In this document: positions 145-10,262 of the stretch, piece by piece
Layout: each line of letters starts with the position of its first letter
How positions within the stretch are numbered: position 1 is the first letter of the stretch
IMG/VR virus record: IMGVR_UViG_3300028840_001289
Coordinates: 1-25,668 of that record
Length of the DNA: 25,668 bases
Origin: a virus
Reading direction: 5' to 3' (one strand)
Program-made: the position numbers and the translations under genes
Notes under the pieces: generated by a model
Told to the model about the DNA's origin: nothing
What the model saw: the letters and a program-made list of their open reading frames with translations, nothing else
Database searches by the model: none

Positions 145-1034
145 GAAAAGCTACCGTGACACATAATATACCTCAATCTATTGATTCAGCGTGCAGGGCA
201 TTCGATGTTGGATGGACTTATTTTTATACTACATACCTGGACAGCACATGGATAGTTAACATACGTTATACAAAACAGGGTGTTAGCCGCTGGGCTTATT
301 TAGAAGGCGGCAACTTTAAATGGAATGATGAGCCTGACAGCATCGCTGTTTTAATGCTTGGAGACAGGCAACCAGAAACAGTTAATTTTAGACTTGAGCG
401 TCCTTTGGATGAATTCACCGGCGATAGTGAATTATACATCGAAATATTTCAGCCCATATCATTTGGTGTTGGAGGTCAGGCTGTGGTTAACAGGTTCAGG
501 CTTGGTTTTATTGTACCTGAATGGGAGGGCGCAGGCTACAAGGATGAGACACTGCTTGACTTCGTTCAGGTAAATGTATGGGGCAGCCAGCCGCCTCAGC
601 AGATGGATTTCACATGGGGCATGGCAAATTCGCAGCGTGATAACTCCCATTATTTCCATTTGAGTAGTCCTTATACCAGGGATGGTATAGTCAAAACATT
701 GTGGGGCATGGATGGCAAAACCACCAACATCACAGAACACAAGTATCTGCATAGTTGGTTGCTGGACAGGCTTATTGAAGACAATGACCTGATCACCCGG
801 AAGCTGAAAGCAAGCTACCGAAGCACCCAGATCAGCCCGTTAAGGTTGGTATTTGATTACGAGGCCAATATTTACGGGTTTGTTGCGGGTGAGTACAATG
901 ATAAGAGTTGTTTTTGGGAGAATGTGGAATACGTAGAATATAAGTCAGTCAGGAATGTACCGGGAAGGAAAGATAGGTGTGACTTTTCCGTCAACCAATT
1001 CGATGACAGTTTTTGTAAATGGATAATACCTTAA
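1..1034 (+). CDS. 3' part of a wrap-around tail/baseplate gene. The full gene is 24450..25524 joined to 1..1034, 702 aa. Putative distal-tail/baseplate protein.
   Basis: The frame of ORF 6..1034 is continuous with the open frame that runs off the window end. Position 6 equals 25530 and both lie in the same codon phase. The gene sits immediately downstream of the tape measure gene. Confidence 0.8.
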   Translation, partial: PLEFESAGIGGWLGLRHWNMEGLECTYYPNENSGNLLINSVSVQGDQRKATVTHNIPQSIDSACRAFDVGWTYFYTTYLDSTWIVNIRYTKQGVSRWAYLEGGNFKWNDEPDSIAVLMLGDRQPETVNFRLERPLDEFTGDSELYIEIFQPISFGVGGQAVVNRFRLGFIVPEWEGAGYKDETLLDFVQVNVWGSQPPQQMDFTWGMANSQRDNSHYFHLSSPYTRDGIVKTLWGMDGKTTNITEHKYLHSWLLDRLIEDNDLITRKLKASYRSTQISPLRLVFDYEANIYGFVAGEYNDKSCFWENVEYVEYKSVRNVPGRKDRCDFSVNQFDDSFCKWIIP

Positions 1035-1044
1035 ATTTGTAACT

Positions 1045-2535
1045 ATGGGAGCAAGAGACGATGCCAGGACATACTGGAACAACAACATAATTCAAAACGC
1101 AGCCCAATCCATTACAGGCCAAAAGTTAAATGTTGGCGGTGTTGATAATATCATTGACGTGGCTACTTTCGATGATGAGATAGTTGGTCGGATGTTATGG
1201 AAGAATGAATGGGTTGCCGGTGAATATAACCAATATGATGTTGTAAGGGATGGTGACTGGACTATGGTTGCTAATAAAACCACTAACGACAAGCCAGCTC
1301 CACAGCCATCAGGAGAACCTTATTATCTTTATACCGGCACTATCGGTACTAACACCGCAACTGCCAAGCAGATTATATTCGGTCAGCGTATTACAACAGG
1401 CGTAAGCGGTGGATATATTAATGGTTATAGAGTTTATACCGTTGCGGGTAACTTTTACAGTGTCTTTGTTGTTAGCAACCCATTGGGAACACCGGTATTT
1501 AATCTTGTTTTGCAATTTACTGCTACTGCTGACGGATGGACTGAGTTTGCTATTAGCCCAATAATATTGCCGCCAGCAACGGTTTTCGATATCATTTGCA
1601 ATGTCAGCGAGCCTGATCCCACGCCTACTACTTTTACCGGCCCCTGGAATTATCTAACACCTAACAACCCAGGCACTCCGGCAGCAGGTACTATCGACCA
1701 CGCTAACACCCAAACAGATTCTTTTAGAATACACAAGACAGATAACAATTCTGTTGACCGTTCGGCTGAGTTACTTTCATTAAGGGTTGGTGATATAATC
1801 GATGGTGTCAATCAAAGGTGGTCTATCCAGTTTTTTTCTGATCAAGGTACTTATGTAGATTTCACCGTTGCTCCAGCACAGCAAGGTGCGCCTGATGGGG
1901 TGGCAACGTTTACTTTCGAGACTGTTACCGCAACCCCTATCACTTATGGTGAGGATTTAGACTTTTGGTCAAGCAACCCAAATGTTCAAGGGCTTTTTAT
2001 TGAAGATGGCCAGTGGTCTGATATTGTTCCAGACGAATCACAATACGGGATAGATATATTGATACAAAACGCAACTGTTAGTACTGATTGGGATTTACTT
2101 GCTTTGAGTGGAGGTACTGGTGGTGGTGGTGATTGGGTTCCTTATTATGTTTTTGATAAGGCCACCGGTGTAACTGTAACTGCAGCTCAGAACCTTGCCC
2201 CGCCCAACAACTGGCAAAACATTTGCGATGTGGAGTATGGCATTGAAAGCGGTGACACTGTATATGAGTTCAAGATCAGTTTAACCTGGACTTATTCTAC
2301 GACAGCCAGGGGATCATACATAAGGTATTCAATTGACAATGGATCTACCTGGAATGAGTTTGTCAGGGAGCCTAAAGATGTAAGTGATGTCTATGTTACA
2401 TACTACGCTTTTCCTCAATCGTACAGCCAGTTGAGTCCTACATCGAGCAGGTTTTTGCTTGATGTGAGTAAACAGGACGATACTGATATAATGTTGGTTA
2501 ATTTCGCTGATGTGATGGTAGAACGTGTTAAGTGA
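1045..2535 (+). CDS. Tail/baseplate or receptor-binding protein, 496 aa. Function not assignable from sequence alone.
   Basis: Long ORF in the tail module, with its ATG 10 nt after the preceding stop. An internal Gly-rich linker (SGGTGGGGDW) separates two regions. Confidence 0.7.
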   Translation: MGARDDARTYWNNNIIQNAAQSITGQKLNVGGVDNIIDVATFDDEIVGRMLWKNEWVAGEYNQYDVVRDGDWTMVANKTTNDKPAPQPSGEPYYLYTGTIGTNTATAKQIIFGQRITTGVSGGYINGYRVYTVAGNFYSVFVVSNPLGTPVFNLVLQFTATADGWTEFAISPIILPPATVFDIICNVSEPDPTPTTFTGPWNYLTPNNPGTPAAGTIDHANTQTDSFRIHKTDNNSVDRSAELLSLRVGDIIDGVNQRWSIQFFSDQGTYVDFTVAPAQQGAPDGVATFTFETVTATPITYGEDLDFWSSNPNVQGLFIEDGQWSDIVPDESQYGIDILIQNATVSTDWDLLALSGGTGGGGDWVPYYVFDKATGVTVTAAQNLAPPNNWQNICDVEYGIESGDTVYEFKISLTWTYSTTARGSYIRYSIDNGSTWNEFVREPKDVSDVYVTYYAFPQSYSQLSPTSSRFLLDVSKQDDTDIMLVNFADVMVERVK

Positions 2536-4738: not shown

Positions 4739-4923
4739 GGTGAATAGGAATCAAATTGATCAACTTATGAACTCTTTGCCAAGCCAGCCCTCAGCGTATT
4801 TCTTTGTAACAAAAGTCAACGTATTTGACTGCATGATGTCTTTTATTTAATGCCCTCAGGACTTCCATAGCTGCCCTGTCACGCACTTTCCTGTTGTATT
4901 CAACCCAGAAGCCACGGGAGCCG

Positions 4924-5871
4924 TTACTTAGACGTATGTGAGATATTTCTATATTCATCTATTGCTTTAAATATTTGGTATGCTACCTGCGGAACTATTG
5001 CGTTTCCGTAAGCTTTGATTGATTCGTTTCGCCACTTTGGAAAGGTAATATTGTCCAATCTGTCGGGAATCCCATCATCTCGGCTACAAACAGGGGGTTG
5101 AGTTGGGAAGTTTTGCCAGTTTGGCTGAACGCATCCGGCAGACTGTTGGTTTCGTTCCTTCCTGCCTTTTGTAGTGCTTCCTCTGACCTTACCCCCTTGT
5201 GATCCCGTGTTGCCGGTGTCGGGAGTAGTGTGTTCGGTAGGCTGCTTTGTTGAGTCCACCCGCTGCCTGTTCTCCCCTTGTAATCCCTTTGGTTTGGTGT
5301 CGGGAGTAGGCCGCTGGCTATCGCATCTTCCAAATTCCCCCTCTTCCTGTCGTTGCTGCAATTTCCCCTCGCTGATGCTTCCCTCGCGGTAGGCAACAAA
5401 CCAAACCCTATCCCGTCTGTGGGGAGCGTTGACACCGCAAGCTGGAAGTAGAAACGGTGTGACCTCGTAGCCCTCAGCTTCCAGGTCAGCTTGCACCTCG
5501 TGGAATACCAGCCCGCCTGACCAATTAACAAGGCCGTAAACGTTTTCTCCCACAACCCAACGTGGCTGAATTTCCCTAATTGCTCTAAGCATTTCCGGCC
5601 AGAGATGTCTGTCATCTTCCTTTCCCTTTCGTAGCCCTGCTGCTGAGTAGGGTTGGCAAGGGAATCCGCCTGTGAGGATGTCAATTCCTCCTCGGTGAAC
5701 AGTGAAATCTGTCTTTGTGATGTCTCCATAACTTATTGAACCTGGAAAATGATACTCTAATACTTTTCTTGGGAAGTCCTCCCATTCGCAGTAAAATACG
5801 TTTGTCCACCCCATCCAATCTGCTGCCAGGTCAAAACCTCCAATTCCGCTGAACAGTGAGCCGTGTGTCAT
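4924..5871 (-). CDS. DNA (cytosine-5)-methyltransferase, frame A, 315 aa.
   Basis: Motifs seen: I FSGIGG, IV GFPCQPYS, VI VVGENV, VIII APHRRDRVWFVA, and C-terminal motif X YGNAIVPQV. The middle (about residues 165-250) is a low-complexity R/K/Q/G/T-rich linker with no recognisable TRD or motif IX. Confidence 0.85.
   Translation of the reverse strand: MTHGSLFSGIGGFDLAADWMGWTNVFYCEWEDFPRKVLEYHFPGSISYGDITKTDFTVHRGGIDILTGGFPCQPYSAAGLRKGKEDDRHLWPEMLRAIREIQPRWVVGENVYGLVNWSGGLVFHEVQADLEAEGYEVTPFLLPACGVNAPHRRDRVWFVAYREGSISEGKLQQRQEEGEFGRCDSQRPTPDTKPKGLQGENRQRVDSTKQPTEHTTPDTGNTGSQGGKVRGSTTKGRKERNQQSAGCVQPNWQNFPTQPPVCSRDDGIPDRLDNITFPKWRNESIKAYGNAIVPQVAYQIFKAIDEYRNISHTSK
4995..5729 (-). CDS. Nested +1-frame ORF inside the C5-methyltransferase gene, 244 aa. 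LLPTP-repeat protein with a C-terminal NPLFVAEMMGFPTDWT motif. Possible TRD/motif-IX module or overprinted gene.
   Basis: The frame has 244 stop-free codons. There are three copies of an LLPT(P)xxR(D/E)xxxG unit at residues 111, 141 and 168. Differences between copies 2 and 3 are synonymous in this frame (cca/ccg Pro, agg/cgg Arg) but not in frame A. MGFPxxW resembles the C5-MTase motif-IX region. Confidence 0.5.
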   Translation of the reverse strand: METSQRQISLFTEEELTSSQADSLANPTQQQGYERERKMTDISGRKCLEQLGKFSHVGLWEKTFTALLIGQAGWYSTRCKLTWKLRATRSHRFYFQLAVSTLPTDGIGFGLLPTAREASARGNCSNDRKRGNLEDAIASGLLPTPNQRDYKGRTGSGWTQQSSLPNTLLPTPATRDHKGVRSEEALQKAGRNETNSLPDAFSQTGKTSQLNPLFVAEMMGFPTDWTILPFQSGETNQSKLTETQ

Positions 5872-6335
5872 ATCACTTCAAGTATCTGCTCAAACGATCT
5901 GATGACGATATAGGTGAACCCACGGGAGATGACCTTCTGCTGGAATTTCACCTGGCTTTCCCGCATCTTGTCCGAGCTCGAGAACTTCACCTCGATATAT
6001 ACAGCACCCTTTATGCCGGGAACCGATGCAATCAAATCGCTGGTACCTGGTTCAGTTGTGCCAGGTATCCATTTGTCCTCGATCAGCGTGCGCTCCTTGC
6101 CGGTGACATCCTTCACCTCGTGCTTGCTTACAAGCCTGCGCCCTGATGTGGTTACCTTCGTGCATATACCGCCTTGTATTTCGATGTACTCACTGATGAG
6201 TGCTTCCAATTGGGCTGCTGTCTTTGGGGTTTTTACTTTAAATTCCGAATCGAAATATCGGGATGGCTCTTTGCCGTGTTTCTTGATGTACTTCTGACGG
6301 CGAAGTTGTTCAAGTTTTAAGTATGCTTCATTCAT
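5868..6335 (-). CDS. VRR-NUC / PD-(D/E)xK-type nuclease-like protein, 155 aa.
   Basis: The C-terminal half reads GTSDLIASVPGIKGAVYIEVKFSSSDKMRESQVKFQQKVISRGFTYIVI. This fits the D...E-x-K...Q pattern of VRR-NUC domains. There is an ATGA overlap with the MTase start. Confidence 0.6.
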   Translation of the reverse strand: MNEAYLKLEQLRRQKYIKKHGKEPSRYFDSEFKVKTPKTAAQLEALISEYIEIQGGICTKVTTSGRRLVSKHEVKDVTGKERTLIEDKWIPGTTEPGTSDLIASVPGIKGAVYIEVKFSSSDKMRESQVKFQQKVISRGFTYIVIRSFEQILEVI

Positions 6336-8066: not shown

Positions 8067-10262
8067 ATGGAATACAACGAATTTTTAAAAACAAAACAAA
8101 AGGCAGTTATTAGATCGGGGTTTGATGTTGATTACAGCGACCTCAACCCGATGCTGTTTGACTTCCAGAAGTTCACAGTCAAAAAGGCTCTCAAGTCAGG
8201 CAAGTATGCAATATTTGCGGATACAGGATTAGGTAAGACACCAATGCAGCTTGAAATTGCAAACCAGGTTAAAATGAAAACTCAGGAGCCAGTCCTAATT
8301 CTTGCACCGCTGGCAGTTACCGGTCAGACTATTGAGGAAGGGCAAAAGTTTCATATTGAAGTTAAAAGATTGACTGATGAACCAGTTAAGAAAGGTATTT
8401 ATATAACCAACTATGAACAATTGGAAAACATCAATACCAACCAATTTGGGTGCATTATTTTGGATGAATCTTCAATCCTGAAAAATGCTATGGGCAAGTA
8501 TCGCAACCAACTTATTAAGGATTTCAAAAACACGCCTTATAAATATTGCTTTACAGCTACACCATCACCAAACGACCCGATGGAACTTGGTAACCATGCT
8601 GAATTCCTGGATGCGATCAGCTACAATGAAATGCTTGCTATGTATTTTGTGCATGATGGTGGTGAAACGCAAAAATGGAGGCTCAAAGGCCATGCAATTC
8701 AAAAGTTCTGGGAGTTTGTAGCAAGCTGGGGTATCATGTATAACCACCCAAAAGATATAGGATTTGAGCATGATGAATTTGATTTACCACCTCTCAGGAT
8801 AATTGAGAAACAAGTAGCTACTAAAGTCCCTGATGGCATGTTGTTTGGCGGCCTGGCAGTTAATGCAACCGATTACAATGCCTCACTCAGAGAAACAGAA
8901 GATGATCGAATCTCACAGACTATTGATATTGTTACCCGAATAGGATTTAAAGATCATATTCTTATATGGGCAAAGCAAAACCAGGAAGCAAAGAAGCTAT
9001 ATGACAGGCTTACTTATTTAGGTCACGATTGCAGAAATGTTCAAGGCAGCGATAGCCCAGAAAAAAAGGAAAAGGATCTGCTTGGATTCATGCACAAAGA
9101 CTATCAAATACTGATCACAAAGCAGGAAATTGCATCAATGGGCCTGAACTATCAGCATTGTCACTACCAGGTATTTAATTCTGTCGACTTCTCATTTGAA
9201 AAGGCATACCAGGGAATGAGAAGATCATGGAGATTCGGACAAAAAAACGAGGTGACCGTTTATATGGTTACTACTGACAGGATGGCTAACGTTATCAAAG
9301 CACAACAAAAAAAACAAGAACAATTTGAAGAGATGCAACATAGAATGACAAATGCAGTAATTAAACATATAGACGGGCTTATTACTACTTCTGTCGATTT
9401 GCAATCAGACGTTATCACAGACCAATACAAACTCCTTCAAGGGGATTGCGTCAGGCGTTCAAAAGACCTTGAAAACAACGAGGCTGATTTAATTGTTTTC
9501 AGCCCACCTTTCAGCGAGCTTTACACATATTCCAGCCATGTTGAGGATATGGGTAACAGCGCAAATTATGATGAGTTTCAGCAGCATTTCAAATACCTGA
9601 TCCCAGAACTCAAAAGAGTATTGAAACCGGGCAGGATTTGTGCAATACATTGTATGGATCTTCCAATTCAAAAAGGCAAAGAAGGCTATATCGGATTACG
9701 TGACTTTTCAGGAATGCTCATTAAATGGTTCCAGGATGAAGGTTTTATTTATCATTCAAGGGTGACTATTTGGAAAGATCCAGTAATCGAAATGCAGCGC
9801 ACCAAAGCCCTGGGATTGTTGCACAAACAACTAAAAAAAGACAGTTCTATGTCAAGGGTAGGCATCCCGGATTATGTATTGATATTTCGCAATGATGGTG
9901 AAAATGAAATACCAATCGAAAACAAACATATCCCCGTTGAACTTTGGCAGAAGATGGCCAGCCCGATATGGTTAGATATTGACTACACAAGGACACTCAA
10001 CTACCGCCAGGCCCGTGGTGAGAACGATGAGAAACATATCGCTCCTCTACAACTGGAAACAATAGAAAGGCTTATACAACTTTATTCGAATGAATATGAA
10101 ACAGTATTTAGCCCTTTCGGCGGGATAGGATCAGAAGGCTATCAAGCCATCCTGATGAATCGCAAATCTATCAGTATTGAACTTAAAGAAAGTTATTTTG
10201 ATGTGAATATAAAAAACCATATTAATGCTGTTCAGAAGTCCGGGCAACTTACACTAATTTAG
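8067..10262 (+). CDS. Fusion protein, 731 aa: N-terminal SNF2-family helicase and C-terminal beta-class DNA amino-methyltransferase. The SPPF motif IV predicts N4-cytosine specificity.
   Basis: Helicase motifs: I ADTGLGKT, II LDESS, III TATPSPNDPMEL, V ASMGLNYQ, VI QGMRRSWRFGQ. MTase motifs: IV DLIVFSPPF, then I VFSPFGGIGSEG near the C-terminus (order IV then I). Confidence 0.85.
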   Translation: MEYNEFLKTKQKAVIRSGFDVDYSDLNPMLFDFQKFTVKKALKSGKYAIFADTGLGKTPMQLEIANQVKMKTQEPVLILAPLAVTGQTIEEGQKFHIEVKRLTDEPVKKGIYITNYEQLENINTNQFGCIILDESSILKNAMGKYRNQLIKDFKNTPYKYCFTATPSPNDPMELGNHAEFLDAISYNEMLAMYFVHDGGETQKWRLKGHAIQKFWEFVASWGIMYNHPKDIGFEHDEFDLPPLRIIEKQVATKVPDGMLFGGLAVNATDYNASLRETEDDRISQTIDIVTRIGFKDHILIWAKQNQEAKKLYDRLTYLGHDCRNVQGSDSPEKKEKDLLGFMHKDYQILITKQEIASMGLNYQHCHYQVFNSVDFSFEKAYQGMRRSWRFGQKNEVTVYMVTTDRMANVIKAQQKKQEQFEEMQHRMTNAVIKHIDGLITTSVDLQSDVITDQYKLLQGDCVRRSKDLENNEADLIVFSPPFSELYTYSSHVEDMGNSANYDEFQQHFKYLIPELKRVLKPGRICAIHCMDLPIQKGKEGYIGLRDFSGMLIKWFQDEGFIYHSRVTIWKDPVIEMQRTKALGLLHKQLKKDSSMSRVGIPDYVLIFRNDGENEIPIENKHIPVELWQKMASPIWLDIDYTRTLNYRQARGENDEKHIAPLQLETIERLIQLYSNEYETVFSPFGGIGSEGYQAILMNRKSISIELKESYFDVNIKNHINAVQKSGQLTLI

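Follow-up and report, generated by a model that had tools for sequence, protein, structure and literature searches.

Two overlapping reading frames of a phage cytosine-5 methyltransferase gene probably encode the two chains of one enzyme

Can a single stretch of phage DNA encode both chains of one methyltransferase in two overlapping reading frames? This question is raised by a locus in a viral sequence of 25,668 nucleotides (nt; IMG/VR record IMGVR_UViG_3300028840_001289), the whole of which is referred to as the window and which, being a phage fragment, also encodes a tail protein and a primase. On the minus strand of the window lies a gene for a DNA cytosine-5 (C5) methyltransferase (frame A), inside which a second frame (frame B) is open on the same strand. 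An earlier sequence-only reading had noticed both frames without stating the strand, and had put forward three explanations: an overprinted gene pair, expression through a +1 and then a –1 frameshift, or two compensating indels in the assembly. The elements that it listed were all present, and the evidence detailed below makes it probable that the locus is a naturally split, two-chain phage DNA C5-methyltransferase, in which one stretch of DNA is read in two frames to give both chains (referred to as alpha for frame A and beta for frame B).

Frame A matched the Pfam family PF00145 with 152 bits (cut-off 22, E=3.4e-44) and phrog_363 with E=8e-78, and contained motifs I, IV (PCQ), VI (ENV), VIII and X in this order, above the PF00145 gathering score. 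As the sequence-only reading had it, a low-complexity middle region was located between motifs VIII and X, with neither a target-recognition domain (TRD) nor motif IX; the natural C-terminal segment A236-315 reached just 13.4 bits against PF00145 (E=0.05), which is under the cut-off of 22. Frame B was likewise found as claimed, with 244 codons and three LLPT(P) units; it starts 142 nt 3′ of the alpha ATG, which places it at +1 relative to frame A. It matched phrog_1008 (annotated 'DNA methyltransferase') with E=2.6e-25, and this family proved to be the LPTP-repeat / NPxFVEWMMGFPxxWT phage family that the sequence-only reading had named. Beta yielded zero matches in Pfam and NCBIfam, and searches of the PDB sequences with beta and with the beta profile returned none at E<=10.

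The end of frame B had been likened to the motif IX region of C5-methyltransferases, and profile scores bore this out. A hybrid of B182-232 and A283-315 matched PF00145 at profile positions 270-323 with 30.2 bits (E=4e-7), while no match to this profile was obtained with the B tail alone or with A283-315 alone. The distance from GFPTDW in frame B to GNAIVP in frame A was confirmed to be 16 codons, and a full A/B/A chimera scored 163.3 bits, compared to 152 for frame A. Beta thus carries the motif IX that is absent from alpha. The hybrid scores point to the origin of the two segments in a once-contiguous IX-X region, and not to their present mode of expression. Given the score of A236-315 and the unconstrained region between motifs VIII and X (see below), frame A does not hold motif IX and a TRD in the same polypeptide as the core.

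To what extent this arrangement recurs was examined in 80 loci from viral contigs and 80 from GTDB genomes, the latter mostly Bacteroidota prophages, of which 78 viral (77 relatives and the window) and 76 genome loci could be scored. Frame A was open across the entire B open reading frame (ORF) in 78/78 viral and 72/76 genome loci, and the longest stop-free run had a median of 331 codons in A, of 269 in B and of 38 in the third sense frame (frame C), which held 9-32 stops. The nested pair also recurred in isolate phages of four bacterial phyla. It was present in Bacteroides phage BS-TP4 (A 440 aa, B 372 aa), in Porphyromonas phage 018a (L005, the record of which annotates B alone, as hypothetical, and omits the methyltransferase frame A), in Paenibacillus phage Tadhana (both coding sequences annotated in GenBank), in Lacticaseibacillus phage R9.1 and in Escherichia phage SHAK7693, while Gordonia phage Rabbitrun and Mycobacterium phage Hoot displayed variant layouts. 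An assembly artefact, in which two compensating indels would have split an ordinary single ORF, has the geometry of the locus in its favour but is contradicted by the same layout in ~150 independent assemblies, cultured phage isolates included, and by the window's exact protein being recorded on 3 contigs. We consider its probability negligible, and the sharing of the layout by isolate phages of four phyla refutes this part of the sequence-only reading.

In four of the 76 genome loci (L093, L105, L140, L167) frame A did not span all of B: the open stretch of A starts downstream of that of B in L093, L140 and L167, and the open frame of B extends upstream of that of A in L105. These four may be decaying prophages, errors in metagenome-assembled genomes or another layout variant. 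Separately, tblastn hits that seemed to cover the chimera in one frame were followed up and rejected as such, with SHAK7693 being nested again, and Streptococcus phage 5093 and Burkholderia phage vB_CB1 carrying classical enzymes.

Whether the openness of both frames could be due to chance was assessed by permuting synonymous codons, with the protein and codon usage of one frame fixed (means over 61 loci). When the A protein was fixed, frame B remained open over the core in 0.7% of the shuffles for the window (mean 0.5%) and averaged 4.3 stops over that region. Conversely, when the B protein was fixed, just 0.3% of the shuffles for the window (mean 0.4%) left frame A open across linker and tail, where it averaged 7 stops. 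Across 117 loci, frame B had 0 stops per 100 core codons versus 3.78 expected, and the control frame C had 7.33 versus 6.72 expected. The sequence-only reading had cautioned that open frames are weak evidence in the linker, the coding strand there being T-poor (which it is, with 11.9% T). Because of the shuffle results and the frame C control, T-poor composition fails to explain the open frames, and that reservation is further answered by a natural control (L171) described below. Both frames are thus selected to stay open, as would be expected of a nested heterodimer with two expressed products.

Opposite the linker, the antisense ORF at 5174..5392 (+) that the same reading had pointed out was indeed present (72 aa). 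The low T content of the coding strand probably gave rise to it as a by-product. In the relatives, antisense runs free of stops were common, with a median of 87-98 codons, and none ran across the whole gene.

The region-by-region constraint on either frame was derived from codon alignments of 117 distinct loci, in which A synonymous-site identity was taken as the identity at A third positions among sequence pairs sharing the amino acid. In the parts of A without B overlap this identity was 0.52, which served as the baseline, and codon periodicity was normal (position 3 identity 0.41-0.49 versus 0.72-0.86 for position 2), as was the frame A periodicity of the alpha C-terminal tail beyond the beta stop codon (4995..4997), which itself falls within alpha motif X. 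Over the motif IV region (A71-90, ~B24-43) A synonymous-site identity was 0.50-0.58, and 0.50 at bases 5653..5667, which encode motif IV and read ...DSLAN... in frame B. Because A synonymous sites are around baseline there, frame B is merely a shadow, unconstrained at motif IV. Values rose to 0.72 at A51-60 (B4-13), and over the N-terminal 63 residues of beta as a whole amounted to 0.61 versus 0.52 (p=0.002). Far stronger elevations were found at A111-150 (B64-103; 0.75 versus 0.52, p=7e-8) and at A251-285, which covers the motif IX of frame B (0.86, p=9e-12, with a peak of 0.98).

The alpha linker displayed the reverse pattern. Its amino acid identity was 0.21 among the 117 loci, B synonymous sites were at their baseline of 0.48-0.51, and in the LLPT region the third position of B was the most variable one (0.38 versus 0.50 and 0.55), so that frame B is the sole frame constrained at the protein level in the linker. 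Although unconstrained in sequence, the alpha linker was never interrupted. Further downstream, the pre-X segment of alpha had an amino acid identity of 0.70, and A256-291 was constrained in both frames, with B synonymous sites at 0.74 versus a baseline of 0.48 (p=3e-7). Constraint is therefore frame-specific along the locus. These data bear directly on the idea that frame B is an untranslated shadow ORF, with homologues that are mere +1 read-outs of the conserved core. Parts of its N-terminus are indeed shadows, with DSLAN deriving from GFPCQ, KMT from DDR and the first LLPT from WFVAY, and A synonymous sites are at baseline at those parts. However, in the linker and over motif IX it is frame B that is under constraint, A synonymous sites are up to 0.98 identical over motif IX, and B lacks the core stops that were expected over the 117 loci, which together render a shadow ORF very improbable.

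A natural control for the role of frame A came from a locus of the same subfamily on a Joint Genome Institute (JGI) contig (L171, 2323..4483), which has a sequential, AquI-like layout. Its 660-aa protein P0157 contains, in frame B alone, the N-domain, ~12 LLPTP units, motif IX, the pre-X segment (FFPTQSPV...FPKHRNESIKAY) and motif X (GNAICPQV). The corresponding alpha is the core only (201 aa), ending ~40 codons past motif VIII, and frame A holds 36 stops across the beta region. Frame A is thus kept open only if needed to reach motif X, and the linker of the window would accordingly be translated as read-through. Moreover, as P0157 has both motif IX and the pre-X segment in one frame, both are real peptide elements, and in the window one set of bases specifies the two of them, each in its own frame.

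Hoot (L008, 1192..2191) has the same AquI-like layout as L171, with gp84 constituting the core and gp83, a +1 ORF overlapping the core ORF by 179 nt, carrying LLPTP units, motif IX and motif X. In Rabbitrun (L006, 592..1455, gp78) the core, motif IX and motif X are found in one frame, and a single LFPTP unit in a +1 ORF. Among the layouts compared, the LLPT units were always at +1 relative to the core. Of the beta proteins, the 257 closest included 245 with a motif-IX-like sequence and only 2 with motif X in frame, so that the nested layout dominates the subfamily.

The layout variants also bear on programmed recoding, in which a +1 shift after motif VIII into B and a –1 shift after motif IX back to A would produce one textbook enzyme. 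In keeping with this, the chimera scored slightly higher on PF00145 than frame A did (163 versus 152 bits), B-IX and A-X are at canonical spacing, and a single +1 shift in Hoot and L171 would yield a complete enzyme. The sequence-only reading had, however, found no canonical slippery heptamer at the junctions, and among the 117 loci none was conserved in position: canonical –1 heptamers (X XXY YYZ) occurred in the last 40 B codons of 16 loci, and homopolymers >=7 in 23, both at varying positions. Recoding requires neither frame B to be open over the core (110 codons) nor the A linker to be open, yet both are kept, against ~200-to-1 odds per locus, and B64-103, which precedes any useful shift site, is under constraint as a protein. 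The chimera would in addition lose the constrained pre-X segment (A256-282), which P0157 keeps together with motif IX in one chain. In M.EcoHK31I, a C5-methyltransferase with a nested beta chain that is compared below, activity was restored when the genes for alpha and beta were supplied from different plasmids (PMC2836561, citing Lee, Kam & Shaw 1995). Frameshift expression is thus quite improbable, and of the three earlier explanations it is the overprinted gene pair that agrees with ~150 loci having both frames open, frame-specific constraint, a conserved B ATG and a published precedent.

If beta is a separate protein, it might also have a job unrelated to methylation, such as anti-restriction or regulation, with alpha working alone. 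Alpha alone does pass the Pfam threshold, and a +1 ORF over the core is also present in the monomeric enzyme of phage 5093, so that the overprinted N-part may have its own role. Nevertheless, alpha is without motif IX and without a constrained region between motifs VIII and X, the motif IX of beta is precisely the one that alpha needs and is correctly spaced, and relatives join beta modules and motif X in one chain, leaving an unrelated job unlikely, albeit the least so of the alternatives.

The phage 5093 locus (L007, 586..1545) encodes a classical monomeric enzyme, a C5-methyltransferase in which the TRD and motifs IX and X are all in frame. Its 141-codon +1 ORF (737..1162, +) spans motifs IV-VIII, has a probability of being open of 0.0005 in synonymous shuffles, and matches phrog_16143 with E=6e-59 and, weakly, the N-part of phrog_1008. 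The tail of this ORF reads ...SLLDILEENVDEKFFLSQE, which we take to resemble the sequence with which the variable region usually begins in C5 enzymes.

Under the two-chain reading, alpha would form the catalytic large domain, comprising motifs I-VIII, then a linker whose sole job would be to stay open, the pre-X segment and motif X. By analogy with M.EcoHK31I, beta would initiate separately at its own ATG inside alpha codon 48 and consist of a loose N-terminus, a Trp/Cys-rich segment, the LLPT(P) array and motif IX. The position of this start is recurrent, as 74 loci out of 117 have the first B ATG at alpha codon 47 or 48, and another 15 have it at codon 43. Upstream of the beta ATG in Bacteroidota-type loci, the G content was 0.15 and the AT content 0.62, versus 0.26 and 0.54 in the core, and this G-poor, A/T-rich context resembles that of alpha's own start, which is suggestive only. 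As regards a Shine-Dalgarno sequence, Tadhana has a GGGAGG 12 nt upstream of beta, and R9.1 only weak matches.

Within beta, B64-103 contains the invariant residues L68, G70, W74, S76, C79, L81, W83, R92 and L97, and is a probable alpha-binding or structural hairpin. The LLPT(P) array most likely recognises the DNA target, as we infer from its position between motifs VIII and IX, its constraint, its variable copy number, its homology to Hoot gp83, the non-significant match to an 'SPTL' motif, and analogy with M.EcoHK31I. The number of PT[PVAI] units among the 257 closest beta proteins ranged from 1 to 11 when counted by regular expression (~12 by eye in P0157), the beta units aligned with those of Hoot gp83 with E=1.4e-5, and when the profiles of beta and a monomeric enzyme were compared, the result fell short of significance (E=0.27), with the best match on the TRD motif 'SPTL..GGG'. 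The first LLPT unit (5398..5412, –) is the motif VIII tail WFVAY read at +1 (TGG TTT GTT GCC TAC becoming TTG TTG CCT ACC); it is a matter of speculation that the LLPT motif was born by overprinting and then duplicated. Again by analogy with M.EcoHK31I, alpha and beta would assemble non-covalently into one enzyme, which would methylate the phage genome and thereby protect it from host restriction.

A number of observations weigh against this two-chain reading. The beta start is without a strong Shine-Dalgarno sequence in the Firmicutes phages examined, and the first ~60 residues of beta are barely constrained. An AlphaFold2 model of beta alone (61-sequence alignment) had a mean predicted local distance difference test score (pLDDT) of 55.8 and a predicted template-modelling score of 0.23. 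The LLPT units are assigned as a candidate TRD by their position, by their constraint and by a profile match that was non-significant, and the locus is linked to the M.EcoHK31I family by layout. As for the model, pLDDT was <50 for B1-30 and ~75 only in the hairpin B79-100. Such a poor model of beta alone fits a chain that would fold on its partner, and is not positive evidence for one. A model of the A/B/A chimera as a single sequence was uninformative (pLDDT 30.9).

Table 1. Position of the two overlapping chains and their parts in the window.
Feature	Residues	Position	Strand	Remark
Frame A (alpha chain)		4924..5871	–	315 aa; from the ORF list
Alpha motif I, FSGIGG	7-12	5836..5853	–	S-adenosylmethionine (SAM) binding; translation checked
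Alpha motif IV, GFPCQ	69-73	5653..5667	–	Catalytic Cys72; from translation
Alpha motif VI, ENV	109-111	5539..5547	–	From translation
Alpha motif VIII, HRRDRVWF	151-158	5398..5421	–	From translation
Alpha linker	A161-255	5107..5391	–	R/K/Q/G/T-rich low complexity; –1 shadow of the beta LLPT(P) region
Alpha pre-X segment, PTQPPVCSRDDGIPDRLDNITFPKWRNESIKAY		5008..5106	–	Overlaps beta motif IX
Alpha motif X, GNAIVPQV	289-296	4984..5007	–	From translation
Frame B (beta chain)		4995..5729	–	244 aa; 735 nt; wholly inside alpha, +1 frame
Beta start codon, ATG		5727..5729	–	Within alpha codons 48-49 (TAT GGA)
Beta N-terminal 63 residues		5541..5729	–	Weakly constrained; largely +1 shadow of alpha motifs IV-VI
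Beta W/C-rich conserved segment, ...LLIGQAGWYSTRCKLTWKL..RFYFQL..STLP	B64-103	5421..5540	–	Overprinted on alpha motifs VI-VIII
Beta LLPT(P)xxR(D/E) units, three	B110-180	5190..5402	–	Candidate target-recognition array
Beta motif-IX equivalent, SQLNPLFVAEMMGFPTDWTILPF	B208-230	5040..5108	–	A synonymous-site identity 0.85-0.98; hybrid profile score

With respect to the surroundings of the pair (Table 1), a VRR-NUC / Holliday-junction-resolvase-like gene lies directly upstream (5868..6335, –), and the overlap of its stop codon with the alpha ATG (ATGA) suggests that their translation may be coupled. On the other side, a 55-aa ORF (4791..4958, –) begins 35 nt before the alpha stop. Elsewhere in the window, 8067..10262 (+) encodes a 731-aa SNF2-type helicase (phrog_16, E=3e-74), the C-terminal half of which also matches the phage DNA methyltransferase families phrog_67 (E=4e-33) and phrog_498. 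The window may thus hold a second methyltransferase-like module within this helicase ORF.

The beta family proved to be broad. A search for homologues of frame B, as proposed in the sequence-only reading, found thousands, with 3410 at E<=1e-3 in a database clustered at 90%, and the beta family profile retrieved 16,082 representatives of 50% clusters, of which 1,758 at E<=1e-30. The test for frame-specific constraint on related loci that had been proposed alongside it is the one run above on 117 loci, where the third position of B was the most variable in the LLPT region. Annotation of the pair is uneven: the incomplete RefSeq gene tables of plasmids (hits H93-H114) list frame A only, whereas Paenibacillus phage records annotate both frames. 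The Paenibacillus phage paper names two methyltransferases and does not comment on their nesting, and our literature searches returned no description of nesting as a phage-wide feature.

The architecture itself has a precedent from 1995, in M.EcoHK31I. What makes the present locus worth following up is the length and strength of the dual coding, the likely location of the TRD in beta, and the breadth of the family. It constitutes a statistically strong case of same-strand dual coding, 735 nt long and imposed on a highly conserved catalytic core. Because one chain is often left unannotated, catalogues of phage methyltransferases and predictions of their specificity may lack the chain that reads the DNA. 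Furthermore, the three layouts of the same modules (nested and EcoHK31I-like, sequential and AquI-like, or Rabbitrun-like) offer natural experiments on the evolution of overlapping genes. As a tentative extension, which we regard as possible rather than probable, nested coding could be the normal state in a very large group of orphan C5-methyltransferases of phages and prophages, with recognition residing wholly in beta through a modular and possibly multispecific LLPT(P) array (1 to ~12 units) that could be lengthened or shortened without touching the catalytic chain, and with the overprinted N-domain maybe having a function of its own (phrog_16143).

How does the locus then compare with known systems? 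With monomers of the M.HhaI type, such as those of Streptococcus phage 5093 and Burkholderia phage vB_CB1, it shares the catalytic motifs, their order and the spacing from IX to X, the difference being that monomers have their TRD and motif IX in the frame of the core and on one chain with it. In the multispecific phage C5-methyltransferases SPR and phi3T, tandem TRDs of variable number share a chain with the core and lie between its motifs VIII and IX. The window resembles them in its variable tandem array of short modules between VIII and IX, although the profile match between LLPT(P) units and a TRD was non-significant. As in other same-strand overprinted genes of viruses, two proteins are drawn from one stretch of DNA, with one frame dominating the constraint in each segment; here, however, the overlap is 735 nt long and involves a catalytic core of high conservation, and most likely both products belong to one enzyme as its subunits.

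Two C5-methyltransferases have been described as two-chain enzymes, M.AquI and M.EcoHK31I (PMC3404938). In M.AquI, alpha comprises motifs I-VIII along with some of the variable region, and beta the remainder with motifs IX-X (PMC3404938). The likeness is that of a two-chain C5-methyltransferase split in the variable region, which is exactly the situation of Hoot gp84/gp83 and of L171 with P0157. The window itself is not of the AquI type, as its motif X is in alpha, its beta is fully nested, and its alpha reads through 95 codons of beta coding sequence in the –1 frame.

The alpha chain of M.EcoHK31I, an enzyme of E. coli HK31 acting on YGGCCR, measures ~309 aa, compared to 315 aa for that of the window. 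In M.EcoHK31I, beta is encoded wholly inside alpha in another reading frame (PMC2836561, PMC3404938), with motifs I-VIII and X located in alpha, to which the TRD has been assigned, and motif IX located in beta (PMC3404938). According to PMC2836561, which for this cites Lee, Kam & Shaw 1995, both chains are required for methylation, and N-terminal truncations of beta weaken alpha binding progressively. The window agrees in having beta nested in alpha at +1, and in distributing motifs I-VIII and X to alpha and motif IX to beta. It differs in that M.EcoHK31I belongs to a restriction-modification system whereas the methyltransferase gene of the window is an orphan, situated among phage replication genes, and in that its beta is longer, with a number of LLPT(P) units that varies among relatives. 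A further difference concerns target recognition, since the literature places the TRD of M.EcoHK31I in alpha while the candidate TRD of the window, the constrained LLPT(P) units, must lie in beta because the region of alpha between VIII and X is unconstrained. In view of this, the placement of the M.EcoHK31I TRD in alpha, as published, seems to merit re-examination. By its described layout rather than by sequence homology, the locus is best described as a nested two-chain C5-methyltransferase of the M.EcoHK31I type.

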